From IMG/VR virus record IMGVR_UViG_2786546892_000017: a stretch of DNA of 64,000 nucleotides. The stretch is one strand, 5' to 3'. The stretch is from a virus. Lineage: Duplodnaviria > Caudoviricetes. The position numbers and the translations under genes are program-made. Below, one piece after another: positions 3,985 through 52,390 of the stretch (positions are counted from its first letter, which is position 1; each line of letters starts with the position of its first letter). The notes beneath the pieces were generated by a model. That model worked only from the letters and a program-made list of their open reading frames with translations, made no database searches and had not been told where the DNA came from.

Positions 3985-4008
3985 AACGTGCCGCCCGTTC
4001 GGGAACTA
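3985..4008 (-). promoter_or_regulatory. class II promoter (tail fibre operon)
   Basis: TAGTTCCC-N10-CACGTT. Confidence 0.8.
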
Positions 4009-4710
4009 CGCCGCCACCAACCGCCCCTCCTCCTCCACGTCAGCCGTCGAAGACGCGGCGCGACGATACACCAGCGGGGCGATCGGCTCGAATAGCCCCA
4101 GCCGGCGCCACACCGCGTAATGAGCCAATGCCGCTTCCTTGGAAATGAAGAGGCTGCACGGCACCGGCTGGACCGCGCGGGAATACCGCCCGTGCTCCCC
4201 CCGCGGGTGGTCCAACGGCTGATACCCCCGAGAGACGGGCGGCAGTACGACTTGCGGCACCCCCCAGACATGAGCCACCAGCCGGAAGCCCCGCTTCGCC
4301 AGAACCTTCCGGCCCCGCTCATTGCAAACCACAACATCCGGGTTACCCCGCACCCGTTGAATCTCGTAGGTGCAGATCTCCCGGCCCCGATACACGGCCA
4401 CCCAGTTCGGCCCGTAGTGATACCGGCACCAAAGGACGAGGGCATTGACGGCCGCGATAACGCTGGGGTAAGTGCCGAACTTCTTCTTGGTGAAAGGGTC
4501 GGCCACGCGGAAGGTGGTGCCCTCCGGACGCCGGTAGATGTGGTGGTATCCGATGTCCGCAATGGGATCTGAGTTGCGGAACTCGTCCCGCTCGGCCTGC
4601 GTGATGCGTGCGTTGCCTGAGTGAGCCAATGAATACGACGACACGTCCGCACCCCCGTGATAGAATTCACGTGAGGCGGTTGCGTTGGGCCGGGGGAACT
4701 TGTCCGGCAA
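4006..4710 (-). CDS. putative DNA-binding protein, AP2-like N-terminal region
   Basis: HIYRRPEGTTFRV...KKFGTYPSVIAAVNAL resembles the AP2 beta-sheet plus G.y.s..A helix; similar to 56230..56826. Confidence 0.45.
   Translation of the reverse strand: MPDKFPRPNATASREFYHGGADVSSYSLAHSGNARITQAERDEFRNSDPIADIGYHHIYRRPEGTTFRVADPFTKKKFGTYPSVIAAVNALVLWCRYHYGPNWVAVYRGREICTYEIQRVRGNPDVVVCNERGRKVLAKRGFRLVAHVWGVPQVVLPPVSRGYQPLDHPRGEHGRYSRAVQPVPCSLFISKEAALAHYAVWRRLGLFEPIAPLVYRRAASSTADVEEEGRLVAA
4611..4622 (-). promoter_or_regulatory. class I box without -10
   Basis: ACTCAGGCAACG inside gene 4006..4710, no TAnnnT at +8. Confidence 0.5.
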
Positions 4711-4743
4711 AGACTCTCCCCCGGCCTCTCTTCTTGTCCCGTG

Positions 4744-4767
4744 ATTATGTTTGCGAGGTGGGAACTA
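4744..4767 (-). promoter_or_regulatory. class II promoter (AP2-like gene)
   Basis: TAGTTCCC-N10-CATAAT. Confidence 0.65.
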
Positions 4768-5373
4768 CCGCTCCCCGTCGTCCGTCATGTGCTCCCTGAG
4801 CATCCCCACCGCCTCGCCCATCAACTGATCCACTCGCCCCTGCGTCAGTCCCATGATCGTCGCCGTCGTCTTCTTGCTGGCCGGGTCGCCACCGATGCCG
4901 GCCCGCAGTTTCACGACCGTTCGATGCGGCTCCGGGAGATATCGAACTGCCTCGCGCAACTGAACCATCTCCCCCGCCGCGTCCAGCTCCGCTTCGCCGC
5001 TCGCCCGCTGGTCGGCTAGCCCTTCCCACCCGTCGTCGTCGTCCTTCGTCTCGACAAACTGTTTGCCTGTTCGATCGTAGAACCTGACCAGTTCGACGAT
5101 GGCCCCGCGGATAAACTTTGCCGCGTAGGTGTCGACCGTCTCGCCCCACCCCGGCTGCCAAGTCGCCGCCGCCTCGCACACCGCCTGAAGCACCGCCGCA
5201 TTGACTTCGTCCCGCCGAAAGTGCCAGTGCGGGGCGTAGACCATTGCCGCGACCTTGGGTGCCAGCATCTTCAGAATGGCCAGCGGCTCGGGATAGCGGC
5301 GGTAGAAGTCCAAGACGAGCTGTTGCTGGTGCTCGCTGAGGGTCGGCGTGGGGCGTGGCGGGGGCGTGTCCAC
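4765..5373 (-). CDS. phage sigma-70 family RNA polymerase sigma factor (regions 2 and 4)
   Basis: AAATWQPGWG..DTYAAKFIRGAI (region 2) and LPEPHRTVVKLR...MGLTQGRVDQL (region 4). Confidence 0.85.
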   Translation of the reverse strand: MDTPPPRPTPTLSEHQQQLVLDFYRRYPEPLAILKMLAPKVAAMVYAPHWHFRRDEVNAAVLQAVCEAAATWQPGWGETVDTYAAKFIRGAIVELVRFYDRTGKQFVETKDDDDGWEGLADQRASGEAELDAAGEMVQLREAVRYLPEPHRTVVKLRAGIGGDPASKKTTATIMGLTQGRVDQLMGEAVGMLREHMTDDGER

Positions 5374-5417: not shown

Positions 5418-5443
5418 ATTCTAGCGTGGGGCGTTGCCTGAGT
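5418..5443 (-). promoter_or_regulatory. class I promoter (drives sigma 4765..5373)
   Basis: ACTCAGGCAACG-N8-TAGAAT. Confidence 0.8.
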
Positions 5444-5449: not shown

Positions 5450-5833
5450 TCAATCTTTCGTCCATCCTGCAATCTCGGCTTCGAGTCGCCTTGTTATCGC
5501 GTCCCGCTCACTCTCGGGCGTGACCATCTGGATTCGCAAAATCAGGTTCCGCGCGACCCGCTCCTCCAACGTCGCCCCGGGGTAGTAGTTGTAAACCGAG
5601 TCCGGCACGGCCGGCGGGACGGCGTTGAGTAACCGCATTTCGCGGACGCCTTCCGCCAACGTCAGGTGCCCGGCGCGAACATCCTCGATCACTTTCGTCC
5701 GCGCGGGATCTTTGGCCACGAGCGGCGACGGCGGATGAGTGGGCTCTGTGTCGACCCCGTTGCCGCCGGGAGGAGGGCAGGAGTTCACGACCGCTACCAG
5801 AACGACGGCCACCACGATCAGTACGCTGGCCAT
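5450..5833 (-). CDS. secreted/lipoprotein-like hypothetical protein
   Basis: N-terminal hydrophobic run ending VVNSC. Confidence 0.5.
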   Translation of the reverse strand: MASVLIVVAVVLVAVVNSCPPPGGNGVDTEPTHPPSPLVAKDPARTKVIEDVRAGHLTLAEGVREMRLLNAVPPAVPDSVYNYYPGATLEERVARNLILRIQMVTPESERDAITRRLEAEIAGWTKD

Positions 5834-5936
5834 CCTCACGCCGTTGGTAGTCACGTTCGGGCCTGCCGGGGCGAAACTACGGTGCAAACACACCCAGATA
5901 TTCGCCGCCGGTAGGTGGACATTTGGATCTGCCAGT

Positions 5937-8444
5937 TTATGCCTTCCCCCATTTCCCCAGCGGGCAGGCTTCCTGCGGATACCACACCTTTCCCGGCTGG
6001 TCCTCCTTTTGCCCGGGTGCGAACCCCGCCGGCTTCACGTCGAGCGGACACCCGCACTGTGAGCAGCGGTCGTCCTTCCCGCGGGCCGGGCAGATGAGAC
6101 ACAGCGAGTACCGCTCCTTCGCCTTATCCTCGCTGACGAAATGAGAGCCGCCCAACCAGTGCCGCACCTTTGCGGCCCCGAAGTTCGCGATCTGCCGGGC
6201 GACGTTTGGAAGGTCCGGCTTGTCCTCGGGCCGACACCCGAGAACCATCAGCCCGTGATTGTTCTCGTACGATTCGAGGACCGTCCACTCCCGATGACTT
6301 TCCATGAACTTCGCGAGACCGGCCACGACACCAGGACCGCCGTCGTCCCCCTTGACGCCGAACGTGTTGGCGTCCGTACAGTGGACGACGATGTACCGGG
6401 AGACCGCGCCGGCCAGTCGGTCAAGGGTCTGGTGGACGGCCGATGCCGTGTGGTGGGTGTCGAGGAACAGGAGGTCGGTCGGCTCAATCTTTGCCCGGTC
6501 GAGATTCGTCACGTCGACCGTCAGCCCCCGGAATCCCGCCTCCCCGCGTTCGGCTGTGGCACTCTGCCAGTCGGGCTTGACCGCCGTGAAGTAGCTGCAA
6601 AACCGCTTGGCCTTGCTCGCTGCGAGAGCCGCGAACGCAGGGGGCTTGAACCACGCCGATACCTCCGTCACGTGGTCGCACTTGTCGGCCAGTGCCTTCA
6701 GCCGCTCTACATGCTCGTGGAAGTCGCTCGGAGTCGCCTTTGCCACAGCGTACAGGTCCACCAGCGGGGGTGCCTTCGACGTCTGCCCGCACGGGACACA
6801 CCCAGCGGCAGGCTCTGTCGCTTTCGGCTTCACTACCTCGGCCGGGAACCAGTTCGGCGCCGGCCCCCAGAACTTGTGATCCGTGATCGGTCGGCCGCTC
6901 AGTTGCCCGCTCTTGGCCTCGTAGCAGACGGCCGCGTGCCCTGTGAACACCCCGGGGGTGTTGACGTGGATGGATGGGGGGCAATTGGGATCAACGGTCA
7001 GGCGGACCCACTTCGAGCGGTCACCGTCGTGGTCCGGTTCGAGGATGACGGACCGGCCGCCCTCCCCCTCCTTGGCCGCCCGCTCCAGGTTCCGGAGGGC
7101 AACGCCGGTCCGCATCGTCAGTTGGTGCAACGGCTCGTGACGCTCCTTGACCGCGAGCCAACCGGTTTCGTTGAGTCCTTCGTAGTTCAGGTTGCTGATG
7201 ACCGGAGATTCAGGGTTCCTCGCGAGGGCATCCCCGATCCGGTCGAAGTACCCAGGCGGGTAAAGGACATCGTGTTCGAGGAAGACAATGGCGTCGAACT
7301 CAATCGGCCCCTGAACAAGAATGGCCTGTTTGATCTGCTTGACGATGGTAGCGTGGGAGCGGGTTCGATCCTTCACATCCAAGGTCGTGTTGATAAACGG
7401 GTTGCCGGGAATTACCCCCCAATCGCACGTTGAAACAAAAACCTCGTGCCGCCCCCGCTCGTTGGACTCATCGGCCGCCCGCTTGATCGTCGCGAGGGAC
7501 CGCTGAAGCAACGCGACCGGCTTCGTGTTGTCCGAGTACCAGACCCCCAGAAGCCGTTGCTTCTTGATTGGCAACGCCCGTTGGCCGAACGGCTGGATCT
7601 TCTCGGCCTGAACTGCAACTTGCTCGAACTGCAGCCGCGGGAACGCCGAATGATTGCCTGCTAGCAGCGACGGTGAGCCGCTGTTGACGTGCGCCGTCCA
7701 AACCTGCTCCGTCGCCTCGATCCCCAATTCCCGGTGCCCGATCAGGAGGTTCCTGACGGAAACCTGGTGGTGGAACGGGTAGGTCGGTAGGTCGCCGTTG
7801 GCATTGGCCCGGAAGCGGTGCCGCCACTTCAGGCCGGGCAAGCAAAGAGCCTTACCGCCCTTCCGCCGAAAGACTTCATGGATATACCCTTCCTCCATTC
7901 CGAATTGCTGGAAGAGGGGATTGAACCCGGGCCACGCCTCGCACCGGGCCATGAAACAGCCCAGACCCATCGAGTGGATTTCAAACGGCTCGTTCCCGGC
8001 TGCCCGCGGGTCGAGTTTCCAGACCCCCCAATACCCGGGAGGGTGGGTCGGTTCGAGATGCGAGGCCATGAGCCGGCCGTCGTCCGACACGAGAGGGCCG
8101 CTGACAATGTCCCGGCTGTCGGGGTTGACACGCGCGTAATCGATTGCCGCCTGAACTGCCCCGCCGCACAACGGCACATGGTCGTCCACGCACATCAGCC
8201 ACGGCGTCTGCGCGCACTCGAACAATGCCGACCGCGGGGCACTCGTCCCCGTCAGGTCCGGCCGATGAATGTATCGGCCCCCGACCGCCAGGGTCACCGC
8301 CCGGGTCTGCGGGCAGGCACGCGGGGCGTTGTCGAGGACGATGATCGGCGTTCGCGGGTGAAACTCGTGCAGGACTTGCAGGGTCATGTAGACCCCCTTA
8401 AAGTCCTGATACGTCGCCATGCCGATCGTTAACGGTTCGCTCAT
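5937..8444 (-). CDS. multidomain glycosyltransferase (two GT-A-like domains, SAM methyltransferase-like domain, Cys-rich tail)
   Basis: LTIGMATY..IIVLDN..LMCVDDH; VFLEHDVLY; TDLLFLDTHH; C-terminal CLIC...CSQCGC...CPLGKW. Confidence 0.8.
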   Translation of the reverse strand: MSEPLTIGMATYQDFKGVYMTLQVLHEFHPRTPIIVLDNAPRACPQTRAVTLAVGGRYIHRPDLTGTSAPRSALFECAQTPWLMCVDDHVPLCGGAVQAAIDYARVNPDSRDIVSGPLVSDDGRLMASHLEPTHPPGYWGVWKLDPRAAGNEPFEIHSMGLGCFMARCEAWPGFNPLFQQFGMEEGYIHEVFRRKGGKALCLPGLKWRHRFRANANGDLPTYPFHHQVSVRNLLIGHRELGIEATEQVWTAHVNSGSPSLLAGNHSAFPRLQFEQVAVQAEKIQPFGQRALPIKKQRLLGVWYSDNTKPVALLQRSLATIKRAADESNERGRHEVFVSTCDWGVIPGNPFINTTLDVKDRTRSHATIVKQIKQAILVQGPIEFDAIVFLEHDVLYPPGYFDRIGDALARNPESPVISNLNYEGLNETGWLAVKERHEPLHQLTMRTGVALRNLERAAKEGEGGRSVILEPDHDGDRSKWVRLTVDPNCPPSIHVNTPGVFTGHAAVCYEAKSGQLSGRPITDHKFWGPAPNWFPAEVVKPKATEPAAGCVPCGQTSKAPPLVDLYAVAKATPSDFHEHVERLKALADKCDHVTEVSAWFKPPAFAALAASKAKRFCSYFTAVKPDWQSATAERGEAGFRGLTVDVTNLDRAKIEPTDLLFLDTHHTASAVHQTLDRLAGAVSRYIVVHCTDANTFGVKGDDGGPGVVAGLAKFMESHREWTVLESYENNHGLMVLGCRPEDKPDLPNVARQIANFGAAKVRHWLGGSHFVSEDKAKERYSLCLICPARGKDDRCSQCGCPLDVKPAGFAPGQKEDQPGKVWYPQEACPLGKWGKA

Positions 8445-8454: not shown

Positions 8455-10458
8455 CTAGCTGCATCCGGTCATCATTTGGCACGCGGTCCGCGTGGGGTAT
8501 ATGCCACCACCCACCGGCTGACAGACCCCCAACACGCAATTCCAGCCGATGCCACCGCTACTCGTGCTGCTCGTTGTTCCGTCCGCGCAGACTGCCTGGC
8601 AATCGAGGCTCGTCGCGTAGGGGCCGCCACCGGGGGTAGCCCCGGTAGGGCACAAACCGCCGACGAGGGTGGCGCAGAAGTCCGGGGACGGGCAGCAGTA
8701 ATACCCCGTCCCCGTGCTGGTACTGGTCGTCGTGGTCGTCGTCGTTGAAGTCGTGGTGCTGGTCGTCGTGCTGGTGGTCGTCGCGGGGGCAGTGCTGGTG
8801 CTGGATGTCGTGCTGGTGGTACTCGTCGTCGTACCGGGCAAGCACGGGGACGCGACGCACAGCGCTACGGTGGAGTAAGTCATCCCGGTGTTGATGTCGA
8901 TTGCGCCCGGGTAGTACATGTAGAGATCGGCCAAGCTGATGTGGCACTCGGCAAACGGACCCGAAACGGCCGACCCGTTGTACAGATAAAACGTGTAGCA
9001 TGTGTACGGCGGTGACGTACTGGTACTCGTCGTCGTGCTGGTCGTCGTCCCGGGCGGCGTACTGGTCGACGGATTCACGCACGGTGTAATAGCCCAGTCG
9101 CACGGGCCGGTAGGAGATCGATCCGGGACGCCGCAGACGCAAACGATGCCGGCGCCACTGCACGTTCCACTCACCACGCCATCGCACGTCGTTACCGGCA
9201 CGGGCAGGCACGAGCCGCTTATCTGGGCCCACCCGCCCAGCCCGTTGGGGCCCATAACACAAGTGCCACAGCAGATACACGGAGCGGGCGGTGGCGGCGG
9301 AACAGGTGTACTCGTACTGATAGGGCCGCAATACGGAGGGGTGTACGATCCGCCGGAGATGCAAGCCGTCGTCACCGCGGTAACGCACCCACCGGGCGAC
9401 ACCGGAGGCGGGCACGGCGGCCACGGGCAATCGCACCCTGTCCCGCACGCGAGTGTCTTTAGGTACTCCCCTGAACCGTTGTCCGTGAAAAGGCAGTAGT
9501 TTGGATTGCACCCGGGCGTACTGGTGCTGGTTGTGGTGGTGGTGGTGGTGTACGGCGGGGCCTGAAACTCCCAATAATACGGCTCGTCCGGCGCCGCAAT
9601 GACCAACGTCGGCGACACGTACCCCGCCCCGCCGGCCCCCAATACCAGAGTGGCCACCTTGCCACCCGCCACGGTTGCGGTGATCACCGCACCGGCACCG
9701 GCTGGGTCCGACACCGTCACCTGCGGGGAGACCGTGTAGCCACCAGTCCCGGGGTCGGTCAGCGTGACGGTCGAAATGCTCCCGCCGGAATTCGCGACCG
9801 TGCCTTGGGCCGTCGTCTGCCGATTCGTCGGGCTGGCCCAGAACCGCGCGTTAACCTTGCCGTGGGTGTCGATTACGGGGATCAGACCTGTCACCGGATC
9901 AGGCACGGGAACAGCGTTCCAGACCTGGACCGGATCGGATGTGTCCTGCCAGGTCGGGGCAGTGGCGGCCGTCACTAATTCTTGCGGCTGCCAACTATAA
10001 AGGAACCCACCGGAAGACGACGTGGAGCCCGTCACCCGCCCCCACATGCTGGCTTGCAGGATACTGAATTCCCACATGCCCGATTGCGTCGGCGACTTCC
10101 AGAACCACCCGTATAAGTTGCCCGGTTTGTCGTCAGTGAGCGTGTCGGTCGGGAACGGATCGCCCTGTACGGGGAACGACGAGTTGACCACCTCGTCCTG
10201 CGAATCGTCATCAATGAACGTGCCGTCCGCCTGCATCACCTGCGGCTGGTAGCTGTACACCTTCTGGGCTCCGGGGCCCGCCGCCTTCCCCGTCAATCTC
10301 CCCCACTGCCCATCGAGCATGTTGGGCAGCTGGATCGACCTCGCCCCGTTCGGACCTGGCACCTCCGAGAACGGCGCGGGGAACCGCAACCCCTCGACGG
10401 CCCGGAGGCGACGGTCGAGGGCGTCCAGGCGGGCACGGTCGGCTGCTGAGTCTGCCAT
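8455..10458 (-). CDS. Cys-rich, Thr-repeat virion (tail tip-like) protein
   Basis: likely start MADSAADR at 10458, 6 nt after a class II -10; poly-Thr/Ser linkers separate Cys-rich modules. Confidence 0.65.
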   Translation of the reverse strand: MADSAADRARLDALDRRLRAVEGLRFPAPFSEVPGPNGARSIQLPNMLDGQWGRLTGKAAGPGAQKVYSYQPQVMQADGTFIDDDSQDEVVNSSFPVQGDPFPTDTLTDDKPGNLYGWFWKSPTQSGMWEFSILQASMWGRVTGSTSSSGGFLYSWQPQELVTAATAPTWQDTSDPVQVWNAVPVPDPVTGLIPVIDTHGKVNARFWASPTNRQTTAQGTVANSGGSISTVTLTDPGTGGYTVSPQVTVSDPAGAGAVITATVAGGKVATLVLGAGGAGYVSPTLVIAAPDEPYYWEFQAPPYTTTTTTTSTSTPGCNPNYCLFTDNGSGEYLKTLACGTGCDCPWPPCPPPVSPGGCVTAVTTACISGGSYTPPYCGPISTSTPVPPPPPAPCICCGTCVMGPNGLGGWAQISGSCLPVPVTTCDGVVSGTCSGAGIVCVCGVPDRSPTGPCDWAITPCVNPSTSTPPGTTTSTTTSTSTSPPYTCYTFYLYNGSAVSGPFAECHISLADLYMYYPGAIDINTGMTYSTVALCVASPCLPGTTTSTTSTTSSTSTAPATTTSTTTSTTTSTTTTTTTSTSTGTGYYCCPSPDFCATLVGGLCPTGATPGGGPYATSLDCQAVCADGTTSSTSSGGIGWNCVLGVCQPVGGGIYPTRTACQMMTGCS

Positions 10459-10464: not shown

Positions 10465-10488
10465 AATGTGGGGTCCGCGGGGGAACAC
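10465..10488 (-). promoter_or_regulatory. class II promoter variant
   Basis: GTGTTCCC-N10-CACATT-N6-ATG. Confidence 0.7.
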
Positions 10489-10495: not shown

Positions 10496-10521
10496 ATCCT
10501 AACGAGGTCCGTTGCCTGAGT
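10496..10521 (-). promoter_or_regulatory. class I promoter
   Basis: ACTCAGGCAACG-N8-TAGGAT. Confidence 0.75.
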
Positions 10522-10525
10522 GAGA

Positions 10526-10549
10526 TAGTGCCCACGAACCGGCCACATT
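10526..10549 (+). promoter_or_regulatory. class II promoter variant
   Basis: TAGTGCCC-N10-CACATT-N7-ATG. Confidence 0.75.
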
Positions 10550-10556: not shown

Positions 10557-11780
10557 ATGGCAGAACTGGAAAGCGAAGAAATCGGCGGCGACGACCTGTT
10601 CCCCGGCGTGCCCAGCTCGGGCTCCCCGGCGTCGTACATTTTGCCCGAGCCCGACCCCGCCGATAATTTCGACGCGGATACCAATTGGTCCGAGCAAGTC
10701 ACCGGCAACGAGGCCCCGGGCGGCGGGTCGTCTTTTAGTCGCGACGAGGGGAATGCGGGGTTGTACGGCTATGTACCGTACAACATGGTTCGGACCGCCG
10801 TAAGAGACATGGTCGGGTACTGTTGGGCCGACCAAGGGCCGCCTTGGCAACTCCACCGCGTCAACCCGTGGCAACACCCGGACTTCCCGTGGATGCGGTG
10901 CCAAAGTGTTCACGTGCAACCAGTTAACCCGTGTGGAGGTCCGAGTCAGGCGGACCCGACAACCAACGTGATCTGGACCAATTCGGCGGCCACGACGGCG
11001 CCTCAGTGGTCGAGCGCAGCGACGGCGGCCGTGCGCCCGAAGCGGCAGATCAACTACACGCGGGCCGCGTGTACCCTGAGCTTCAAGCCGTTCCCGTACG
11101 TCTTCTTGGAAGACGCGGATATGCAGGCGTATGGGTTGAAGGAGTATTATCGTAACTGTGATAGATTTTCTAGTATAGACCCGGCCCTCACGACGTTGAT
11201 GGCCTCGGCTACTCCGTTCATGACTTTTTTGGAGGGTCTGGACAACTCCACACCCGGCAAGCCGCTGACCAGTTTTACGCCGCCGCAGATGTTTCAAGGT
11301 GATTTGTACGAGCTGCTATGTCAAACGGATCTGGTCTTGGCATGGTACGGGGTGCCGTTGGATTTTGTCTGCGACCCCTACCTTCCGAGCAAAATCCTTG
11401 CATGTGTAGGCACGGTTAACATTAATGATCAGTGGCTGAACGTGTTTCCCAAAGGCACGTTGTTGCTGAATGCCCCACACATTAGAAAATCAATACAGAA
11501 CGTCTGGACAACACCGAACACGATTGGCTTCACAGTCGACGTGTTTTTCCCGTTCAAATTTTTCAATCCAACAGCTGGCGTTATGCTGGACTACCAGGAC
11601 GGACGAACCTCATCCCTGACTCAACCGGTTTTTAACGGGCACAATTTGTTCCCGCTCGGGACGACTGGCAGATACTATTCGGCCGCCAGAAAGAACAAGA
11701 ATACCCAGCAGGGAGATCCGACAAAGCCACTGATTTCATTCAGCGATTTCGACACGATGTTCGCACATGTGAAATCGTAG
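10557..11780 (+). CDS. putative tail hub/structural protein, inverted relative to other virion genes
   Basis: 407 aa W/P/N-rich; lies between tape measure and tail-tip genes; own class II promoter, leaderless. Confidence 0.55.
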   Translation: MAELESEEIGGDDLFPGVPSSGSPASYILPEPDPADNFDADTNWSEQVTGNEAPGGGSSFSRDEGNAGLYGYVPYNMVRTAVRDMVGYCWADQGPPWQLHRVNPWQHPDFPWMRCQSVHVQPVNPCGGPSQADPTTNVIWTNSAATTAPQWSSAATAAVRPKRQINYTRAACTLSFKPFPYVFLEDADMQAYGLKEYYRNCDRFSSIDPALTTLMASATPFMTFLEGLDNSTPGKPLTSFTPPQMFQGDLYELLCQTDLVLAWYGVPLDFVCDPYLPSKILACVGTVNINDQWLNVFPKGTLLLNAPHIRKSIQNVWTTPNTIGFTVDVFFPFKFFNPTAGVMLDYQDGRTSSLTQPVFNGHNLFPLGTTGRYYSAARKNKNTQQGDPTKPLISFSDFDTMFAHVKS

Positions 11781-11811: not shown

Positions 11812-11816
11812 TCCCT

Positions 11817-11911
11817 TGACGACCAGCGCGGAGTAGCTACCGCGCGTAAACCTTCCGGCCGGCACTGCGGGTTGCGTTCCCCTGTGGTGTCGGCCGGAGG
11901 GCGGGTCGTTA
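11817..11911 (+). ncRNA. conserved structured 5' leader RNA, copy 1
   Basis: near-identical to reverse complement of 17266..17359; three helices; compensatory change CGCGG/CCGCG vs CACGG/CCGTG. Confidence 0.65.
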
Positions 11912-14669: not shown

Positions 14670-14740
14670 GCTCATCCGGCAGATCGCACCCGATAAACGA
14701 GAAGACCCCGCCGGGCACGCAGCCAAGCGGGGTCGCACTC

Positions 14741-17359: not shown

Positions 17360-17365
17360 CGGGAG

Positions 17366-22215: not shown

Positions 22216-22692
22216 CGGACCCGTACGAAGTGCCTGCACGGAATAGTCGAGCGTCACCTTGAACACGTACCCAATCGTCTCGGTCCGCGTCGTGTCCGTC
22301 ATTCGCCGCTGCTTCGGTGGGAGAATGGTTTCAATCGTCTGGCCGGTTACGGGGAGGCTGGTACACCAGTCGAACCCTTGGGCCGCGTTGTACGCCCCGG
22401 CCCCGAACCGGATGCCCAAAGCGATGGCATCCGCCGCCGCAAGGCTCAGGGCATAGATTTCGAACGTGAAGTCTGTGGTCTCGATCACCTCGTACTCGAA
22501 GGTCTGGAAGGACGGGGTGGTACCGTTGTCCTTCAGGAGCACGTAGGGCGGCTTGTACGGGTTCCCGCTGCCGTCCTTGGCCGGCACCTCGTCAAAGAGG
22601 ATGGGGACGGGCGGACTCGGCGGTGACGGGGTGGCCACCGGGAGGGACTGGTAGAACTCGACGATGGCGCCGATGATGGAAGTGGATGGCAT
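22213..22692 (-). CDS. tail terminator/completion protein
   Basis: leaderless start MPSTSII; PPYVLL...FTFEIYA.S...A..IA pattern. Confidence 0.65.
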   Translation of the reverse strand: MPSTSIIGAIVEFYQSLPVATPSPPSPPVPILFDEVPAKDGSGNPYKPPYVLLKDNGTTPSFQTFEYEVIETTDFTFEIYALSLAAADAIALGIRFGAGAYNAAQGFDWCTSLPVTGQTIETILPPKQRRMTDTTRTETIGYVFKVTLDYSVQALRTGP

Positions 22693-22699
22693 GCCCCGG

Positions 22700-22723
22700 A
22701 AGGTGACGGGGGGCGGGGAACTA
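22700..22723 (-). promoter_or_regulatory. class II promoter
   Basis: TAGTTCCC-N10-CACCTT-N7-ATG. Confidence 0.8.
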
Positions 22724-26870: not shown

Positions 26871-27160
26871 CCTACTTCCCATCCTTCCGCCCCACTCGCC
26901 CGGGCTTCGCCACAGGCTCCGGAGCATCCGCAGGGACAGGTGGAACGACAGCGGGCTGGGTATAGATCGTCTTGGCATCTTCTGATGCGACGGCCTTGGA
27001 TTGATTGGCCTTGTCGATCAACGTGGCAAGGTGAGCGAACGCGAATAACGCCGGCATCGGGGGCATCGTCGTTTCTCCATCGGGTAAAAGAAAAACCGCC
27101 GCCCACGGCTGGGGGACCGTAGACGGCGGCCGGGGGATGGATCTCGACCAAAAGGCCGCG

Positions 27161-34119: not shown

Positions 34120-34141
34120 GGCAACTTCTGGGAGATAGGCA

Positions 34142-38274: not shown

Positions 38275-41200
38275 CACACCGTGACCACATCGGCCGCCGA
38301 CAACCCCTTGACGAACCTCAACGCGGCCCGCCTTATCCTTCGCCGCTTCGCCTTCATCTTCGGACCTGCCGCCGGAGGCACCAGCGTCCCGCCCACCGCG
38401 TTCAAGTTCGCAGACATGCCCCCGATAGCCTTTTGCATGTGAGCGGCCCCGGAGAGCAAGATGGGCGTCTCCTGGCCGTCCGCGTCCGAGAAGTGCAAAT
38501 GATGGGTCACTGCCTCCTCGTTGATCGTCCCCATCCGGCGGGCGTGTTCCGCCCCCAACCCCGGTTGGACATAGGCGATGGTCGCGTGCGGGACGTACTT
38601 CGCTCGGGTGTTCGTATGGGGGAGCAACTTCCGTAGTTTCCGGTTCAACCGCCTGATCCCGGCACCGTGAACTTCAGCGTACAGAATGTCGTGCTCCGGG
38701 TGGCTAAACACCCGAACTCGCCCGAGCCGGTATTTCACGGGCCTCGAAGTTCCCCCTACGGCCCATCGCACGTCTTCCGGGTCGTCCGTGTGCAGTCCGT
38801 ATAGCGTCGTGATGTGCGGGGAATCCTCCCGGCCGTCATCGAACGCGAGATGGTCGTCAGGGATGGAATCGGCGAGGGCCGTGATGTGGGACGCCAGGTG
38901 CCCCGGGAGTTTCACGTGGGTCGATGACAACGGCCGGTCGTCCGCGTCCATCCCCTTCTTCATGCGGGGCGGCAACGATCCCTTCCCGGCCGGGTTGCTG
39001 GGGCGGGGCGGCCAGTTCGCGGCCCCGGCCGGCTTGCCGTGCTTCGGCACCGGCACCCGCTTCGCCCGCACCGTTACGCCACCCTTGCTCGCCGAAACCG
39101 GACCGCCGGCCTTGATCTGTTGAACCACCTGGCCGGCCAAACTCTGGATCAGATTCGACAACAGAGCATGCGCGTGCGACTCGGAGATCCCGAGTTTCGC
39201 AGCCACCCGCCCCGCGTGCTTCGACGCCTCGCTCGCCGCCCAGACCGCCGGCTTGTGGCTCAAAATCTTGGCGTGCCGCGGGGTCAGCCGCTGGGCGACG
39301 GGCAACGCGCGAGACGCGACGGCCGGGGCCACATGCTTCGCCAAGGGCGCCACGGTCGGCGGGAGCGGGGCTGGCGTAAACTCCTTGGTCGCGTCGGCGT
39401 TGGGGGGCGGCGTTCGGCTGGCGGGTTGCGCAGGCGTCGGGCCGCGGCCAGCAATCAGCGGCGCCGCAGGTGCGGCTGGCGACGGTTTCTTTGTCGGTGT
39501 GTGGTGGAACGCGGCGTCGATGGCCTCCGAGTTATCCCTCACTGGTACCGAAGATTGTCGCGGGGGCGGCGTCGGGGCCGAAGGCGTCGGCTTGGCAGCG
39601 GATTGAGACGCAGGGGCAGGCTGCCCGGCCAACACCCGATGCTTCTCGGCCGCTTCCACGTGGCCCTTGACCGCCCCTTCGGCCCCGCTCACACCGGACT
39701 TCTCTTTAGCCGTCCGCTCGTGAACGGCGGCTGCGTCTTGGTGAATCTTTGGATCGGTCTTAGCCCCGGGCGGAATGAACTCGTACCCTTCTTTCCCCGA
39801 TTTGTCCCACAGGAGAGCCCCAGCCCCCCACTGGTTGCCGTTCTTGTCTCGCCCATCGCTGTTGATTACGACTTTCTTGTGCCCGTCATCGGTGTGGAGG
39901 ACTACCGTGTAGCCCTCCTTCGATTTTTGACGGACCAGATCTTCGACATGCTTCGTCGCCGCCTTCATATCGACGTAGCCGTTGCTGCCCGTGAATTGCT
40001 TCAACAACGAACCTTTGGTGATCGGTGCCTGGTGCGGCGTAGCAGTCGATGGCGACGGCTTGTCACCTTCCTCTGGCTCCACATGACCGGCCTGTGCCCG
40101 TTGCAGCTTCTCCGCAAGGTCGTTGCGATCGGACAATTTTTGAAAGTGTGCCTCACCGTGGGCGCCCCACTCTTCTTTTGGTTTGCGCACCCACCCCTTC
40201 ATTGACTCGTCAATGCCCTTATCGGCTACGGCCAGTTTTGACTTCAGGTCGGCCACGTGCGGCGAGTCTGGCTGAGCCCCGTGGGCCGCGATCGCCGCGT
40301 CCAGTTTCTTCCGTTGGCCTGGGTCTGTCACCTTGGCCCGAAGGGCTGCTGCGGCTTTCGGGTCTTTGGCCGCTGCTGCTACTTCGTCTTTATCGACGAA
40401 CTCCCCATGATCATCTCGCGGATGCTGGTCTTCGAACCCTTTCTGGAACGGATCGCCCGGCTTGATCCCCAACGCCTGCAACACCTCATCGGTGATGAGA
40501 CTGCGGGGGTCGCCAGTATCGGGGAGAGGTTCCTCGCCCTGTGCGTCCAACTCGGGGACACCGTTGGATCGATCGGGGGCCACAACGGGCGGGGCCGGTG
40601 GCGTGGGGGCGGCAGGTTGCCCGGGTGCGGGTTGTGGCTGGGTTGCGGCCTGGGCCTTGGCTTGGAGTCCGGCCACATACACCGACGGGGGGACCTCCCC
40701 TCCTTCCACGGGGTCCAGATCGATCATCCCCCGCAGTTCGTTCGTCATGATATAGCCAGACGACGCACCAGCATTCATTCGAGCCTGCTGGATATCGTGG
40801 TCGTCAATCTGTGGCGGGTCGATTTTTACGACGAGATGGTCTTTCTCCCAAAAACGCTTCGCCAGATGCTTGGTCAGTTGCTCGCCAATGTCCTTCACGA
40901 CCGGCCCGAGCCCGAGCGTGAAGAACTGCTTGAGTTTTGCGTAGAACGCCGCGTAGCTGTCCGCGGGCTTCAGCCCCGCCACGGTTGGGTCGGCGAGCCA
41001 CAGGGCACAGACCATGCCCATCATCCGGTCCCACCCGGACCCGTAGTCCATGTCACGGGCGCCAGGAGTGAGTAAGTTCGTAATCTTCACATCTTCGTCG
41101 CCAGCCAGCCCGATAATCCGATTTCCGCGAGCGCCGCTATACCGCTGCGAGACCTGAGCCAGTGCCGCCTCAACCGCCTCCTGGTTCGCCCCCGGCACAC

Positions 41201-41999
41201 TGATAATCGTGTCAGCCGACAGTCCGTTGTCCATCGACCGCTTCCAACTATCCGCGATCGCGTCGATCGTGTCGATCATCCTCGCCCCGGCTTGCATCTT
41301 GGGCCACGTCGCCCACTGATACAGCGGGTGAATCTCGTGGTCCCAGATGGCATCGCGCCGGTCGATCGTCCACGGACCACCCATCCCGAACGGTCCCACG
41401 ATCCCCGTCACGTAGTTCGTGACGTACCACCCACCGCACGGGTACTGGGTGCCCATCGGGATCTGATTCGTCGTCGGGGCAGGCACGATCCACAGGTCGG
41501 CCGGCGTACCAACCTCGCTCGGTCGCCAGGGCACAATCACTTCGCCCACGAGCTGCTTTTGGAGCGTCCACGACGAGAGAAATTGGCTGATCGTCTCGAC
41601 TTCGTTGGGGTCTTGCATCAGCCGGACGAGTTTGTGCTCGTCCGGGGCCGGCTGGTACTCGTGGTCCTTCGCCCCCGGCGCCCCAAACGCCTTCTTGAAC
41701 GGCACCCTCGAGGCCGTCCCCATCCCCTTCGGCCGCTGCTTCCGCTTCTGCTCCACCCGGACCGTGCAGCTCCCGACCGCGTGCATCAACGCACGGATAC
41801 AGAGGTACTGGACGTCCTTGTATTTGCTGGCCTGGGTGAGCCGATCAGAGAGTGCCGGCCCCGGGATGTCGCGGCTACGAATCTCCAGGACCGTTGACCG
41901 CGCCTGATTCGTGGCGGGTTGAGGAAGTCGTTGCGTCGGGTCGGGCAGCCCGAGAATGCGGGAGCGGCTGGATTCGGCGGACTGCGTAGTAGGTGCCAT
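38274..41999 (-). CDS. portal protein with long extension and C-terminal 2H phosphoesterase (Acb1/T4 gp57B-like)
   Basis: LMQDPN..ETISQF, RDMDY, MTNELRG..DLDPVEGG portal motifs; SPHITTLYGLH and YVPHATIAY 2H motifs. Confidence 0.85.
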   Translation of the reverse strand: MAPTTQSAESSRSRILGLPDPTQRLPQPATNQARSTVLEIRSRDIPGPALSDRLTQASKYKDVQYLCIRALMHAVGSCTVRVEQKRKQRPKGMGTASRVPFKKAFGAPGAKDHEYQPAPDEHKLVRLMQDPNEVETISQFLSSWTLQKQLVGEVIVPWRPSEVGTPADLWIVPAPTTNQIPMGTQYPCGGWYVTNYVTGIVGPFGMGGPWTIDRRDAIWDHEIHPLYQWATWPKMQAGARMIDTIDAIADSWKRSMDNGLSADTIISVPGANQEAVEAALAQVSQRYSGARGNRIIGLAGDEDVKITNLLTPGARDMDYGSGWDRMMGMVCALWLADPTVAGLKPADSYAAFYAKLKQFFTLGLGPVVKDIGEQLTKHLAKRFWEKDHLVVKIDPPQIDDHDIQQARMNAGASSGYIMTNELRGMIDLDPVEGGEVPPSVYVAGLQAKAQAATQPQPAPGQPAAPTPPAPPVVAPDRSNGVPELDAQGEEPLPDTGDPRSLITDEVLQALGIKPGDPFQKGFEDQHPRDDHGEFVDKDEVAAAAKDPKAAAALRAKVTDPGQRKKLDAAIAAHGAQPDSPHVADLKSKLAVADKGIDESMKGWVRKPKEEWGAHGEAHFQKLSDRNDLAEKLQRAQAGHVEPEEGDKPSPSTATPHQAPITKGSLLKQFTGSNGYVDMKAATKHVEDLVRQKSKEGYTVVLHTDDGHKKVVINSDGRDKNGNQWGAGALLWDKSGKEGYEFIPPGAKTDPKIHQDAAAVHERTAKEKSGVSGAEGAVKGHVEAAEKHRVLAGQPAPASQSAAKPTPSAPTPPPRQSSVPVRDNSEAIDAAFHHTPTKKPSPAAPAAPLIAGRGPTPAQPASRTPPPNADATKEFTPAPLPPTVAPLAKHVAPAVASRALPVAQRLTPRHAKILSHKPAVWAASEASKHAGRVAAKLGISESHAHALLSNLIQSLAGQVVQQIKAGGPVSASKGGVTVRAKRVPVPKHGKPAGAANWPPRPSNPAGKGSLPPRMKKGMDADDRPLSSTHVKLPGHLASHITALADSIPDDHLAFDDGREDSPHITTLYGLHTDDPEDVRWAVGGTSRPVKYRLGRVRVFSHPEHDILYAEVHGAGIRRLNRKLRKLLPHTNTRAKYVPHATIAYVQPGLGAEHARRMGTINEEAVTHHLHFSDADGQETPILLSGAAHMQKAIGGMSANLNAVGGTLVPPAAGPKMKAKRRRIRRAALRFVKGLSAADVVTV

Positions 42000-42005: not shown

Positions 42006-42029
42006 AATGTGCCGCAGAACGGGGAACTA
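42006..42029 (-). promoter_or_regulatory. class II promoter (portal)
   Basis: TAGTTCCC-N10-CACATT-N6-ATG. Confidence 0.8.
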
Positions 42030-42314
42030 GCCGACTCTCACAGGCTCGTCCGCCTCAACGCTTTCCGCCCGCTTCACCAATTGCATCTTGGTTTCCAGAT
42101 GCGACTCTGACGGCAACGCGAACGAAGCAAATGGCAGGACTACCCACCGCGCGACCCACATCTTCATTGTCCCGTCGTCGAGCGTCTTAATGGCCGGGCG
42201 ACGGAGTATCTTCACCCCACTGATCCGTAATTCCACGACCTCCCAACGATACGGCTCACCCGGTTCCATCCAGATATCGCCCACCCGCACGTCAGGTCGC
42301 TCAGCCTCACTCAT
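42027..42314 (-). CDS. hypothetical protein
   Basis: stop is TAG of the portal class II box. Confidence 0.5.
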   Translation of the reverse strand: MSEAERPDVRVGDIWMEPGEPYRWEVVELRISGVKILRRPAIKTLDDGTMKMWVARWVVLPFASFALPSESHLETKMQLVKRAESVEADEPVRVG

Positions 42315-47908: not shown

Positions 47909-47978
47909 ATCCTACCCGCTCGCGTTGCCTGAGTGATTTCGGGAGCCGCACGAGTCAGGCAACGGGAGGCGGTAGAGT
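47909..47978. promoter_or_regulatory. back-to-back pair of class I promoters
   Basis: - box-N8-TAGGAT (47909..47934) and + box-N8-TAGAGT (47953..47978). Confidence 0.8.
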
Positions 47979-49372: not shown

Positions 49373-50104
49373 ATGACCGAGAGGGACGCCCTGCTGCGGG
49401 CGGTACTGGAGAACCCAGACGACGACTTGCCGCGTCTGGTGATGGCGGACTGGCTGGAAGAACACGGCCAAGAGAGCGAGGCGGTGAAAATTAGATATGG
49501 CGTGGCCAATCCGCATGAAACAGAGGGGAAATATTTGGCCCAAGCCATGTCGTTCGCATCTATTCGTCGCGGCTTCATCGAACAAGTTGCGTGCCCGTGC
49601 GAAGTGTTTATGGCCAAGGCGGGGGAGTGGTTCGGAGTGCAGCCAATTACGCGGGTGGTACTAAGCGACAAGCGGCCACATCTTCCGCACGTCGGGAGAC
49701 CGGGCGAGACAAGGCATCTGGACTACAGCCCCTGGAAAGCTTTCTATTGGAACTCACCCTACCACTGGAGCGAGCGGTTCATGGACTGGCGAGGCGATAA
49801 TTCGGTCCCCCATGTCCTGCCCGCACAATTGCTTTCTCGGTTCCCTCCGGAATACGTAAAAGCTGTATACGAACAAGAAAACGGCCAGCGGGGTATGCAC
49901 CGCCGCGGCTACGAATTCCCTGCACACAAAACGATAACGTCGTTGCACTGGGATAACCAAATTTCATACCGACTTATCTACAGTCCACAGAGTTTTAATT
50001 TGTCCTTTGACCCCGAGCGATACTCCGAGATTTGCCTGTCCGCTGCCTGCGTCTCCTACGGCCGCACCCTCGCCGGATTGTCCCCGTACACGCCGGGAGT
50101 TTAG
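49373..50104 (+). CDS. TIGR02996 domain protein
   Basis: ERDALLRAVLENPDDDLPRLVMADWLEEHG...IRRGFIEQV. Confidence 0.85.
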   Translation: MTERDALLRAVLENPDDDLPRLVMADWLEEHGQESEAVKIRYGVANPHETEGKYLAQAMSFASIRRGFIEQVACPCEVFMAKAGEWFGVQPITRVVLSDKRPHLPHVGRPGETRHLDYSPWKAFYWNSPYHWSERFMDWRGDNSVPHVLPAQLLSRFPPEYVKAVYEQENGQRGMHRRGYEFPAHKTITSLHWDNQISYRLIYSPQSFNLSFDPERYSEICLSAACVSYGRTLAGLSPYTPGV

Positions 50105-51750
50105 CGGCCCCCGCCCGCCACGGCGACGACGAGGCCGCCGCTCCTGCCCTCGTAGTACGCCAAGTTCATCGCGTCCATTCCATCTGGGGATCGGCCAATT
50201 TTCTTCTTGGTGTCATCTTTCGGCTCGACGCTTCGCCGGCCCTTTGAGTCGGGCCACCAGATCGGCGCCAACGCCTGCGATTCGAGACGAGCCACGACCC
50301 CCGACTTCCGGGCGTTCAACGCGGCGAGACTTAGCCGCCCACTTTTCGCCCGCTCGACCGTCGAGAACCACAGCTCGTGCCTCACCTTCTCGTACTTATC
50401 AGAATCCTTAGCCGTCTCGGAGCTGTTAACCGGAATCACGTTGTATTTATCGGCCCGGAGGATGCTGACAACGCCGCCCCCGCACCCGGTATCATCGACC
50501 TTCATCTTGATCTGCTTTGCTGTGACCGCTGGTAGCGTCTTCGGTCTATCCTTGTTAGCTAATGCCGCTAATTCGGCCACCACATCCTTCAGCCGTGTGG
50601 CCACGCGGACTTCATCCCACCCATTCACAGCCTCGTGGTCCAAGCTCACGTTACCCCACCGGGAATGCGTCTCGGTCCAGTCGTCGCCGAAGCGGGCCAC
50701 GTCGCAACCCAACTCCGGAAACTCGTTCATCCGGTGCGGAGACCGATCATCATTTTTTACCGCCATCGACCACAACGCCTCGGACCATACCCCGTAAGTT
50801 CCGGCCGAGGGTCGCCGGCCGAGAACCCTGGCTTCGCCCAGTGGCCCGGGTCGCCACCACTGTCCGCTGCCGGGCGGGAATTCAATGTCCGTCGCCGCAT
50901 GAGAGTCCGCCGCGATTCGTTCGAACCAATCTCCCAGCCACGTCCTGACCTGTTCGACAGACACCGCGTTCGGGATCGGTACGGGCAGCGGTAACTCGCC
51001 CCGTGCGATCCGCCCCTCGTTCTCCAGGCCGACGGCTATGTTCGGGTGGCTGAGGCTACTGACCGTGAACACCTGCCACTTACGAAGCCCGTCAGCGCCC
51101 ACCGCTCGCTCTTCGATGAAACTCTGACTGGTCGTCGTCGTGGGGTTCAGAATCGCGAAGAAAGCGTGGTCGCCGTTGGGGTGGAACATCGTCTCCGCCG
51201 TCTGCCAGTAGTTCGCACTGACGCCCTCGGCCTCATCGAATACGAACAACATCCGGGCGCGGTGCCGCCCCTGGAAACTCTCACCTTTGCTGGCCGTGTA
51301 CCCTTTGGCGTAGTGGTCGTCGCCCGTGCGCATCTCGGGCGCCGCGGGACCGATGAAGTCGAACGGGAGAGGTAGTTTCGCACGCTGCCGTTGCAGCCTC
51401 ACTTCAGTCCAAAGGAGATCCACCACGTCCCGCTTTGTGGGCGCCGTGGTAATGGCCACCCCGGGCTTCCGGGTGTCGTACCACCAGTTGACGAGCCACG
51501 CCGCAAGAAACGTCTTTCCGATCGAATGGCCCGACTTCACGAGCACTCGGTACGGTGGGCAGAGAATGGCCGGTGCGATTTGGGATTGATCTGGCGTGGG
51601 TAGAATACCAAGCACGTCACGCGCGTAACCGAGAGGATCATTCAAGTAGGCAGAGAAATCCCGATCGATGCTGGCTGAATCGTCACCCATCTCTTCTTCG
51701 ATCTGACGGGCGAGGCGGTCGATGGCGTTGCTCGTTGCGAACGACTTCAC
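50101..51750 (-). CDS. terminase large subunit
   Basis: KSGHSIGKT Walker A, FVFDEA Walker B, GCDVARFGDD nuclease, SPDGMDA. Confidence 0.93.
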   Translation of the reverse strand: MKSFATSNAIDRLARQIEEEMGDDSASIDRDFSAYLNDPLGYARDVLGILPTPDQSQIAPAILCPPYRVLVKSGHSIGKTFLAAWLVNWWYDTRKPGVAITTAPTKRDVVDLLWTEVRLQRQRAKLPLPFDFIGPAAPEMRTGDDHYAKGYTASKGESFQGRHRARMLFVFDEAEGVSANYWQTAETMFHPNGDHAFFAILNPTTTTSQSFIEERAVGADGLRKWQVFTVSSLSHPNIAVGLENEGRIARGELPLPVPIPNAVSVEQVRTWLGDWFERIAADSHAATDIEFPPGSGQWWRPGPLGEARVLGRRPSAGTYGVWSEALWSMAVKNDDRSPHRMNEFPELGCDVARFGDDWTETHSRWGNVSLDHEAVNGWDEVRVATRLKDVVAELAALANKDRPKTLPAVTAKQIKMKVDDTGCGGGVVSILRADKYNVIPVNSSETAKDSDKYEKVRHELWFSTVERAKSGRLSLAALNARKSGVVARLESQALAPIWWPDSKGRRSVEPKDDTKKKIGRSPDGMDAMNLAYYEGRSGGLVVAVAGGGR

Positions 51751-52316
51751 TTCTTGCCCGCCCGCTTCGCCGTGAGCTCCGCCAGTTTCTCCGATAATTC
51801 TTTCACCTTGTCCGCCATGCCCAGTAACCCGACGAGTTCGACCCGCTTCTCAACACAGTAGCCCACGATGCGAAGAAATTCGGCCGACCCGTCCCGCCCA
51901 GCTTTCTTCACCTTCCGGCTAATCGGTGTGCCGGGCAGAGGCGGGGCGTTGTCACCTGCCACAGCCGGAACATCTTCAACGTCAATCGTCACCGCATCAG
52001 CCTGGCTCCGCTCCCACGCCCGCCACGCCTCTGCCTCGACGCGGTCCAGTTTCGCCATCTCTTGGGCCACTCGCCGCCCGTAAGCAGTCCGGGCTTCCTT
52101 CACCCACTCCGCGCGGATCGCCTTCAGGTCTTCGCTGATGACCGACTGGGTAACCCCGACATCGGGCGAGTTGGCAATGTCCCATTGGGTATGCCCGGTC
52201 AGATACAACCGAGCCACGATCGCTCGTCGGGCGGTAATTGCAGTGTCGACGGCTGTGGAGCGGCGGCTCACTCGGTATTGCCTTAAACGTATTGGGCCAC
52301 GGCCGCTCCGCCACAC
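51747..52316 (-). CDS. terminase small subunit
   Basis: HTH RRAIVARLYLTG.TQ.DIA...GV....IS.DL; coupled to large subunit. Confidence 0.75.
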   Translation of the reverse strand: MWRSGRGPIRLRQYRVSRRSTAVDTAITARRAIVARLYLTGHTQWDIANSPDVGVTQSVISEDLKAIRAEWVKEARTAYGRRVAQEMAKLDRVEAEAWRAWERSQADAVTIDVEDVPAVAGDNAPPLPGTPISRKVKKAGRDGSAEFLRIVGYCVEKRVELVGLLGMADKVKELSEKLAELTAKRAGKK

Positions 52317-52366
52317 AGGGTTACTGAGCGGGAAACGGCGGGTTGAGCGGTGGCCATGATACCCTG

Positions 52367-52390
52367 ATAGTGCGGGGCGGGCGGGAACTA
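52367..52390 (-). promoter_or_regulatory. class II promoter (terminase)
   Basis: TAGTTCCC-N10-CACTAT. Confidence 0.75.

Follow-up and report, generated by a model that had tools for sequence, protein, structure and literature searches.

The window studied here, a 64,000-nucleotide (nt) stretch of a tailed-virus record (IMGVR_UViG_2786546892_000017; G000:C20:163704-227703), belongs to a temperate siphovirus-like prophage of a planctomycete-like bacterium. A short two-block sequence recurs in front of its virion and packaging genes, and the question raised by this locus is what the repeated sequence does and which protein reads it. A first-pass annotation, made from the letters and open reading frames (ORFs) of the window, had counted about 15 copies of the sequence, TAGTTCCC-N10-CAYNNT (hereafter class II), with an invariant 10-nt spacer, had interpreted them as individual late promoters and had suggested a motif scan as a check. 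Our analysis favours, with reasonable confidence, the reading that class II is a phage-specific late promoter, served by a phage sigma factor within a transcriptional cascade.

A fixed two-block motif

Eleven exact class II matches are present in the window (3985-4008, 4744-4767, 20246-20269, 22192-22215, 22700-22723, 23370-23393, 25202-25225, 31619-31642, 37103-37126, 42006-42029 and 52367-52390), all on the minus strand, against 0.02 expected by chance, and this count was reached in 0 of 100 shuffles. Three degenerate copies keep the same 10-nt spacer (10465-10488 and 19633-19656 on the minus strand, 10526-10549 on the plus strand), and a further, twelfth exact copy lies to the left of the window at G000:C20:163010-163033 (window coordinates -693 to -670). 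Together these make up the 15 sites analysed below, each named by its upstream end. Both the copy number and the constant spacer of the first-pass annotation are confirmed by the scan: no spacer other than 10 was seen for any copy with the exact 8-mer, and for the two plus-strand TAGTTCCC 8-mers at 2110 and 44959 no second block was found. A relaxed core, GTTCCC-N10-CAYNTT with at most one mismatch, matches 15 times in the window, against 2.37 expected and a largest shuffle count of 7; 14 of the 15 are sites listed previously, and the remaining match, at 10621-10642 on the plus strand, looks like chance.

All 15 sites are oriented towards the gene behind them, including the divergent pair 10488 (minus strand) and 10526 (plus strand), and the single plus-strand site precedes the only plus-strand gene among the targets. 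The pattern of a bipartite promoter, two blocks at a fixed distance and oriented to a gene, is thus found in 15 of 15 sites. Across the whole 12.36-Mb genome there are 17 exact matches, 12 of them in C20:163010-216093, against 1 for a reversed-pattern control. A weight matrix built from the 12 exact C20 sites gives them 29-40 bits, scores that are circular for these building sites and informative for the rest of the genome, where the next best position reaches 20.4 bits. Judged from these sequence patterns, class II is very probably a promoter motif.

Stop codon, motif and start codon

Alignment of the 12 exact sites extends the motif on the gene strand to TAGTTCCC-N10-CACnTT-C..G. The base after the hexamer is C in 12 of 12 sites, a G follows four bases on in 11 of 12, and a purine lies 7 or 8 nt past the hexamer. 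The N10 spacer is C-rich and not conserved, and the same lack of conservation holds for the 20 nt upstream of the 8-mer.

At 7 of the 15 sites (10488, 10526, 22723, 23393, 25225, 31642 and 42029), an ATG is found 6 or 7 nt past the hexamer, and each of these seven ATGs opens the long ORF. Among the 199 CAYNTT hexamers of the window, 10 have an ATG at this distance, and class II sites account for 7 of the 10. An ATG so close to the hexamer leaves no room for a Shine-Dalgarno sequence or other ribosome-binding site, and the mRNAs at the seven sites would be leaderless, with transcription predicted to start at the A of the ATG. Sites 4008, 4767, 19656, 22215 and 37126 have a purine at the same place, followed by a leader of 25-40 nt with a GAGG-type ribosome site. 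At the other end of the motif, the 8-mer begins with TAG and therefore often doubles as the preceding stop codon: of the 11 exact sites in the window, 8 use this TAG to terminate, in frame, a preceding ORF of at least 85 amino acids (aa). The stop-to-start junction consequently needs only 27-28 nt, as at 22723..22692, where 28 nt separate the stop and the start.

Because the motif at several junctions reaches from one gene's stop codon to the next gene's start, it could in principle act in RNA, as a processing site at which a long late transcript is cut before each AUG or as a signal for stop/start translation re-initiation, and among the ORFs of the class II blocks one is weakly matched by a PHROG family with the label 'Rnase E'. 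We consider an RNA-level signal highly improbable. No conserved structure is seen at the 15 sites, and the energies of their folded 28-nt segments are mostly no better than those of shuffles, with clearly greater stability only at 22723, 31642 and 42029; no Rfam family was found in the window. The start codon is off the fixed distance, or 25-110 nt away behind its own ribosome site, at 8 of the 15 sites, and sites 25225 and 31642 lie where no gene ends. Two blocks separated by a free spacer of fixed length are, moreover, typical of DNA recognition. A hairpin or single-stranded DNA promoter, formed by pairing of N10 with the bases past the hexamer, was also considered and rejected, as the sites have no common structure.

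A second motif class with the same layout

Word counts revealed a further motif, TCAGGCAAC-N9-TAnnnT (hereafter class I), with 16 exact sites in the window (5418-54790) against 0.08 expected and one copy with an N8 spacer at 23635-23658. The first base of the block and the first base of the hexamer are 18 nt apart in both classes. The class I hexamers (TAGGAT, TAGAAT, TACAAT and similar) look like ordinary -10 elements. At the class I site 26037-26060, an ATG 6 nt past the hexamer is the start of ORF 25785-26030, which supports a putative role as -10 elements for the hexamers of both classes.

Class I sites precede the gene of a sigma-like protein, sigma-A (site 5418-5441), the Clp_N gene (38249-38272), a GroES/VWA run (46255) and three small genes between the capsid and connector blocks (26845-26868, 26599 and 26037-26060), as well as the Ant-like gene region and the plus-strand inserts (11788, 23682 and 47955); small membrane genes are among the targets as well. 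Divergent pairs are formed by 23658/23682 and 47932/47955 (sites 47909-47932 and 47955-47978). The window scan found no site of either class to the right of 54790. At the sequence level, the 16 exact sites lie between virion blocks, in agreement with the earlier description of class I accessory genes interleaved between class II blocks.

Two strong terminator-like hairpins on the minus strand bracket the capsid block. The hairpin at 31675-31705 (14 pairs, 10 of them G-C) closes the unit that comes before it and lies immediately ahead of class II site 31642, and the hairpin at 27094..27131 (16 pairs, then a T run) ends the capsid block and is followed by class I sites 26845, 26599 and 26037. 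The earlier picture of individual late promoters fits the geometry, the orientation and the prophage restriction of class II, whereas a promoter for every single virion gene would be too strong a claim: each site stands at the head of a block that holds between one and about five genes.

This arrangement also bears on whether the sites are bound by a repressor. The stoperators and start-associated sequences of mycobacteriophages are single 13-bp blocks, repressor-bound or of unknown role beside ribosome sites, and they resemble class II in being repeated, oriented short motifs at gene junctions across a temperate phage genome. A prophage repressor that blocks elongation into the virion genes in lysogeny, in the manner of the cluster A stoperators, would suit the many asymmetric copies, which all face the same way with respect to transcription and lie in very short gaps between genes, and repressor-like genes are present (the HTH_3 gene at 33147-33425 in the window and an S24 peptidase gene at L011:10513-11265 in the flank). 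However, the mycobacteriophage sequences lack -10-like geometry and a fixed distance to a leaderless ATG, and a stoperator would give no reason for the ATG at 6-7 nt in 7 of 15 sites, for the purine at +7/8 or for the -10-like position of the hexamer. Class I sites, laid out in the same way, have an ordinary TAnnnT hexamer, and the virion blocks, split by class I units and terminators, would be left promoterless if class II were a set of repressor sites. We therefore rate a stoperator-like role as improbable.

Two side observations concern the surroundings of class I sites. Two of these sites have homologous leaders of about 60 nt, at 11812-11870 (plus strand) and 17306-17365 (minus strand), which share the pattern ...gacgacca.c.cggagtagctaccg.g.g.aaacct.tc.ggccggcactgcggg with an internal inverted repeat and could represent a shared regulatory leader or small RNA. 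In addition, GCGATCTGCCGG is located about 8-20 nt upstream of some class I blocks, at 14676-14687 and L010:19273-19284 (both on the minus strand) and in two elements of contig C9 described below. This sequence, conserved in the C20 prophage as well as in the C9 elements, may be an additional site for a regulator.

Two sigma-like proteins

Two proteins of the sigma-70 family are encoded in the window, both on the minus strand. Sigma-A (4765-5373; 202 aa) has a class I site before its gene and a class II site after it. Its Sigma70_r4 domain scores 26.8 bits against the Pfam cut-off of 24.1. An AlphaFold2 model built from a 12-row alignment (mean predicted local distance difference test score (pLDDT) of 80) shows an N-terminal domain (residues 14-102), a disordered linker (107-131) and a sigma-4 domain (132-198), and 50 of the 50 matches of this model in the PDB at E<=0.001 are sigma factors. 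The best NCBIfam match at the subfamily level is FliA/WhiG (E 2.9e-8); its score of 33.7 bits is far below the cut-off of 189.6, and assignment of sigma-A to FliA was rejected. Sigma-B (56848-57540; 230 aa) has regions 2 and 4, with region 4 and TIGR02937 above their cut-offs and region 2 below. The two proteins are 25% identical over their full length and have a common N-terminal ...YPEP... module. Sigma-B lies in a leftward early run of genes that is free of class I and class II sites, with only an AGGAG Shine-Dalgarno sequence in front.

A paralog of sigma-A (39% identity, E 1.1e-23) is encoded at G000:C19:334182-337500 (L009, L012:14133-17498), in a prophage that differs from that of C20 and carries terminase, portal, S49 protease, capsid and tape measure genes on L013. 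In this paralog, region 2 is detected above the cut-off (26.6 bits against 24), unlike in sigma-A, and TIGR02937 is above its cut-off as well. Its gene has an exact TAGTTCCC-N10-CATCTT site on either side, both with GGTTCCC behind them, and is followed by a second sigma-70-family gene. The family is sparse. A word-index search for relatives of sigma-A found the protein itself only; a full HMMER scan with the two paralogs returned 13 proteins at E<=1e-10, 2 of which are the queries, and the aligned relatives keep the N-terminal P..P.A module.

A phage sigma factor probably reads class II. If the reader is indeed a phage sigma factor, sigma-A is somewhat preferred over sigma-B, a pairing that rests on gene order and on the arrangement in the C19 prophage.

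Where else the motif occurs

Class II is restricted to the C20 prophage and, in the same genome, a small number of further mobile elements. Beyond the C19 prophage, it is found in two elements of contig C9 (G000:C9:229001-241600 and C9:326450-338570; L014 and L015), which are about 12 kb long, 88-91% identical, and both encode a serine recombinase, a GHKL/Toprim protein and an NrS-1-type primase-polymerase. Each contains TAGTTCCC-N10-CACCAT and, about 145 nt later, TCAGGCAAC-N8/9-TAGACT. No homologue of sigma-A or sigma-B was found on C9, and the elements are possibly satellites responsive to the C20 prophage. A scan of 266 further genomes from the same order gave a maximum of 2 class II matches per genome, similar to the control. 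Viral contigs contain at least 118 matches, and among the 80 matches listed each is on a different contig.

As a side observation, the only exact copy outside C20, C19 and C9 is TAGTTCCC-N10-CACAGT at G000:C7:293371-293394 (minus strand), 18 nt before the AGGAGG-led ATG of a 338-aa ORF.

Weighing a sigma factor against an activator

In the mechanism that we favour, the host core RNA polymerase with a phage sigma-70-family protein, most likely sigma-A, would bind the 8-mer at about -30 to -23 and the hexamer at about -12 to -7, and transcription would start at the conserved purine 7-8 nt past the hexamer. At seven sites this start base would be the A of the ATG, giving leaderless mRNA; at the remaining sites it would open a leader of 25-40 nt with a GAGG-type ribosome site. 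The sites would then take their place at the end of a cascade. Host holoenzyme would transcribe the early leftward run that includes sigma-B, sigma-B would read the class I promoters to express accessory genes and sigma-A, and sigma-A would read class II to express the packaging, head, connector, tail and fibre blocks.

Several observations weigh against this mechanism or parts of it. Promoters of the sigma-70 type and of the extracytoplasmic function (ECF) type have 16-18 bp between the -35 and -10 elements. In class II, the gap from the first six bases of the 8-mer to the hexamer is 12 bp, the 8-mer being about 6 bp nearer the hexamer than a canonical -35 element, and docking of sigma-4 on the flap may not allow such a gap, leaving room for an activator. 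The hexamer, CACnTT (CATAAT once), is without the TA of a standard -10 element, and class II accordingly shows neither the 16-18 bp spacing nor the TAnnnT of canonical sigma-70 promoters. Sigma-A itself falls below the curated cut-offs for Sigma70_r2 and TIGR02937 (35.6 against 42.9 bits for the latter). Its sigma-4 recognition helix differs from that of the C19 paralog despite the identical 8-mer, which weakens the pairing of sigma-A with class II, and S(R/K)ERVRQL is common to sigma-B and the second C19 sigma. In 9 metagenome loci of a distant sigma relative (P0006), no class I- or class II-like motifs were found; repeated words in three of the nine (L016, L021 and L022) are iteron-like tandem repeats. 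Relatives of the portal protein, searched with its N-terminal 650 aa, were found neither in genome contigs nor in viral contigs, and overall counts of terminator-like hairpins are not above those of shuffles.

Class II fits neither of two other types of sigma promoter. ECF sigma promoters are of the GGAAC-N16/17-CGTC type, with AAC in the -35 and CGT in the -10 element; class II does not match these blocks, and its GTTCC is the reverse complement of GGAAC but lies on the strand of the coding direction. Sigma-54 promoters have GG at -24 and GC at -12, one helical turn apart, and depend on an enhancer-binding ATPase. The GG/GC pattern is absent from the class II blocks, and no sigma-54 or AAA+ activator family was found among the 76 window ORFs.

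The short distance from block to hexamer keeps alive an explanation by a late activator, in which a phage protein other than a sigma factor binds the 8-mer near -30 and a host sigma of the primary or ECF type uses the weak CACnTT. The middle promoters of phage T4 combine a MotA box at -30 with a sigma-70 -10 element and are served by the activator MotA, the sigma-remodelling protein AsiA and host sigma-70, and Mu C and P2 Ogr are phage late activators with their own sites. As in T4, a block near -30, about 11-13 bp from the -10 hexamer, would replace the -35 element: with its centre near -27, the upstream block lies nearer the start than a canonical -35 element could and is similar in position to the MotA box. 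CACnTT alone would be a poor -10 element in need of help, and no function is assigned to several of the class I or early proteins. Unlike in T4, however, MotA and AsiA families were not found by Pfam and PHROG among the 76 window and 60 flanking prophage ORFs, in scans that could miss distant homologues, and no other late-activator family was found among the window ORFs. Two sigma-like genes and two promoter classes of identical geometry are explained more simply by two sigma factors than by an activator, and the motif is essentially absent from the host chromosome. A late activator is, on this balance, unlikely, although we consider it the most plausible of the alternatives to a phage sigma factor.

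Relation to known phage and bacterial promoters

That phages use sigma factors of their own to read their promoters is textbook knowledge. In Bacillus phage SPO1, gp28 and gp33/34 form a sigma cascade whose promoters have about 17-18 bp between the -35 and -10 elements. FliA/WhiG (sigma-28) promoters, TAAAGTTT-N11-GCCGATAA, resemble class II in having two long blocks and a short written spacer, but their blocks are unrelated in sequence, and in class II the distance to the upstream block is about 3 bp shorter. For phages phiEco32 and 7-11, promoters of the TAATGTATA type were assigned to a phage sigma from over-represented motifs (PMC4331800). As in SPO1 and phiEco32, phage sigma-70-family proteins would redirect the host core polymerase, and the promoter classes map onto functional gene clusters. 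The phiEco32-type promoters are single-block (PMC4331800), as opposed to the two blocks here; and unlike class II, SPO1 and phiEco32 promoters are not known to be placed in stop-to-start junctions or tied to leaderless starts.

By analogy, the nearest described behaviour is that of the late promoters of Thermus phages. In phage Lalka27a, TAGGGT and a single conserved upstream base are common to 16 putative late promoters, the late promoters are dense, and most transcripts are leaderless, starting from the A or G of a start codon about 6 nt past the hexamer; the phage is reported to encode no sigma factor, and a modifier of host polymerase is assumed (10.64898/2026.04.20.719267). The prophage is like the Thermus phages Lalka27a and YS40 in having many putative late promoters before late genes, leaderless geometry and no single long late operon. 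It differs from Lalka27a (TANNNT, no 8-bp block, no sigma) in its CACnTT hexamer, its invariant 8-mer 10 nt upstream and its two phage sigma genes.

Our literature searches found nothing on the class II motif, on planctomycete prophage promoters or on sigma cascades in such prophages. Three features appear to be new: the sequences of the blocks, the compressed geometry that both classes have in common, and the way in which the motif is fused with stop codons and with leaderless starts. A bolder proposal, which we put forward tentatively and regard as doubtful in its entirety, is that the two phage proteins found an undescribed branch of the sigma-70 family. Its members would be small, with an N-terminal L-T..Q..LV...YPxPxA signature and without region 3, and would place region 4 about half a helical turn nearer the -10 element than any characterised sigma factor, at compressed '-30/-10' promoters of two flavours. 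The 27-28-nt stop-promoter-start cassette would restart the virion blocks leaderless after accessory units, and the C9 elements would be satellites listening to the phage sigmas.

Genes behind the class II sites

From right to left, site 52390 (its TAG being the stop of ORF 52388-52906) heads a block with a small helix-turn-helix (HTH) protein (51747-52316) and the large terminase (50101-51750); an ATG 9 nt past the hexamer opens just 24 codons, so the real start is leadered or uncertain. At site 42029, the TAG ends ORF 42027-42314 and the ATG at 6 nt is the portal start (38274-41999), a leaderless geometry. Site 37126 begins 5 nt past the TAA of the Clp_N gene, has an A at position 7 after the hexamer and is followed by a 29-nt leader with GGAG and then the GTG of an 818-aa ORF (34617-37073). 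Site 31642 adjoins the hairpin at 31675-31705, and the ATG at 7 nt opens ORF 31267-31611, which encodes 114 aa, is Cys-rich (CPGCGDKCMDCGGGQCRCLGC) and has a GC3 of 0.84-0.88. The block continues with ORF 29955-~31260, the major capsid gene (28447-29910) and ORFs 27947-28378 and 27161-27916; a 525-aa ORF listed from 31532 must start downstream of ~31267.

Site 25225 is intergenic, with the ATG of 24278-25195 at 6 nt. At sites 23393 and 22723, the TAG ends ORFs 23391-23681 and 22721-22978, and ATGs at 7 nt open 22982-23362 and 22213-22692, respectively. The TAG of site 22215 is the stop of 22213-22692; an A at position 7 and a 26-nt leader with AGAGG precede the ATG of 21650-22165, with ORFs 21111-21599 and 20267-21094 next. 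Site 20269 takes the stop of 20267-21094, and its next ORF, 19669-20241, has an ambiguous start, either an ATG 4 nt past the hexamer or a GTG at 37 nt behind GAGGG. The degenerate site 19656 (CGGTTCCC) is separated from the tape measure ATG (17438-19594) by a 38-nt leader with GGAG.

Further left, the divergent pair consists of the plus-strand site 10526 (TAGTGCCC), with the ATG of 10557-11780 at 7 nt, and the minus-strand site 10488 (GTGTTCCC), which is directly downstream of class I site 10496-10519. The ATG 6 nt past the latter (at 10458) opens a 667-aa ORF (8455-10458), followed by 5937-8444 and 5450-5893. Site 4767 has the hexamer CATAAT, takes the stop of the sigma-A gene as its TAG and leads, through a 33-nt leader, to the TTG of 4006-4710. 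The stop of that ORF is in turn the TAG of site 4008, behind which a leader with GAGG precedes the GTG of 3552-3959, then ORFs 2995-3555 and 2365-2991 and a fibre-like gene (660-2360). Behind the copy that lies outside the window, on its left, the leader is about 110 nt long and includes a class I site.

The gene labels given to these blocks in the first-pass annotation fared unevenly in Pfam and PHROG scans of the 76 window ORFs. Family matches confirm the large terminase, portal, major capsid protein and tape measure. Matches are weak for the head completion protein (22982-23362) and for the Ig-like head-closure or connector protein (24278-25195). No family support was found in the scans for a 'tail terminator', a 'chaperone' or a 'head protein' (34617-37073), and the 'AP2-like' label of 4006-4710 is likewise unsupported, this ORF having no Pfam family even at E<=1.

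Prophage and host

The same scans show a tailed-phage gene layout with most genes on the minus strand. The right side of the window holds nucleotide-metabolism genes and sigma-B; leftward of it follow the large terminase, portal, capsid, tape measure and fibre-like genes, with sigma-A near the left end. A flank scan covered 60 prophage ORFs of L010 and L011, together with 36 ORFs of the C19 prophage. The flanks add phage-type genes, namely an integrase (L010:1199-2347) and, on L011, a primase-polymerase, a helicase-like ATPase, CsrA and the S24 repressor, and the prophage therefore extends roughly over G000:C20:145-239 kb. A megablast comparison of 14 kb with phage records gave no match. The genome comprises 12.36 Mb in 20 contigs with about 64% guanine plus cytosine, and contains at least 155 copies of PF07596, against 0 of 14 control genomes with matches, a high copy number that we take to be typical of Planctomycetota.

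Two further features lie within the virion region. The portal gene (minus strand) encodes 1241 aa, with the portal domain at residues 119-425 and, at the C terminus (residues 1034-1150), a fused 2H phosphoesterase or 2'-5' RNA ligase-like domain. The sole cluster in the window of host-type TTGACA-17-TAnnnT promoter-like sites, on both strands at 33432-33493, is found around the HTH_3 gene 33147-33425 and, on the plus strand, genes 33688-34620. Surrounded by virion genes, this cluster may be a regulatory island expressed in lysogeny.

Implications

If our reading of the two promoter classes holds, the prophage would present a complete, sequence-defined temporal programme for a virus of a Planctomycetota-like lineage. 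An 8-bp block only 10 bp from a -10 hexamer raises a structural question, namely how the sigma factor sits on the polymerase. With stop codon, promoter and leaderless start fused, transcription would be restarted economically behind inserted accessory genes. Genetic tools are scarce in the planctomycete phylum (PMC11958385), and a pair of short promoters, each strictly defined and with a sigma factor of its own, could be used as orthogonal switches for expression.

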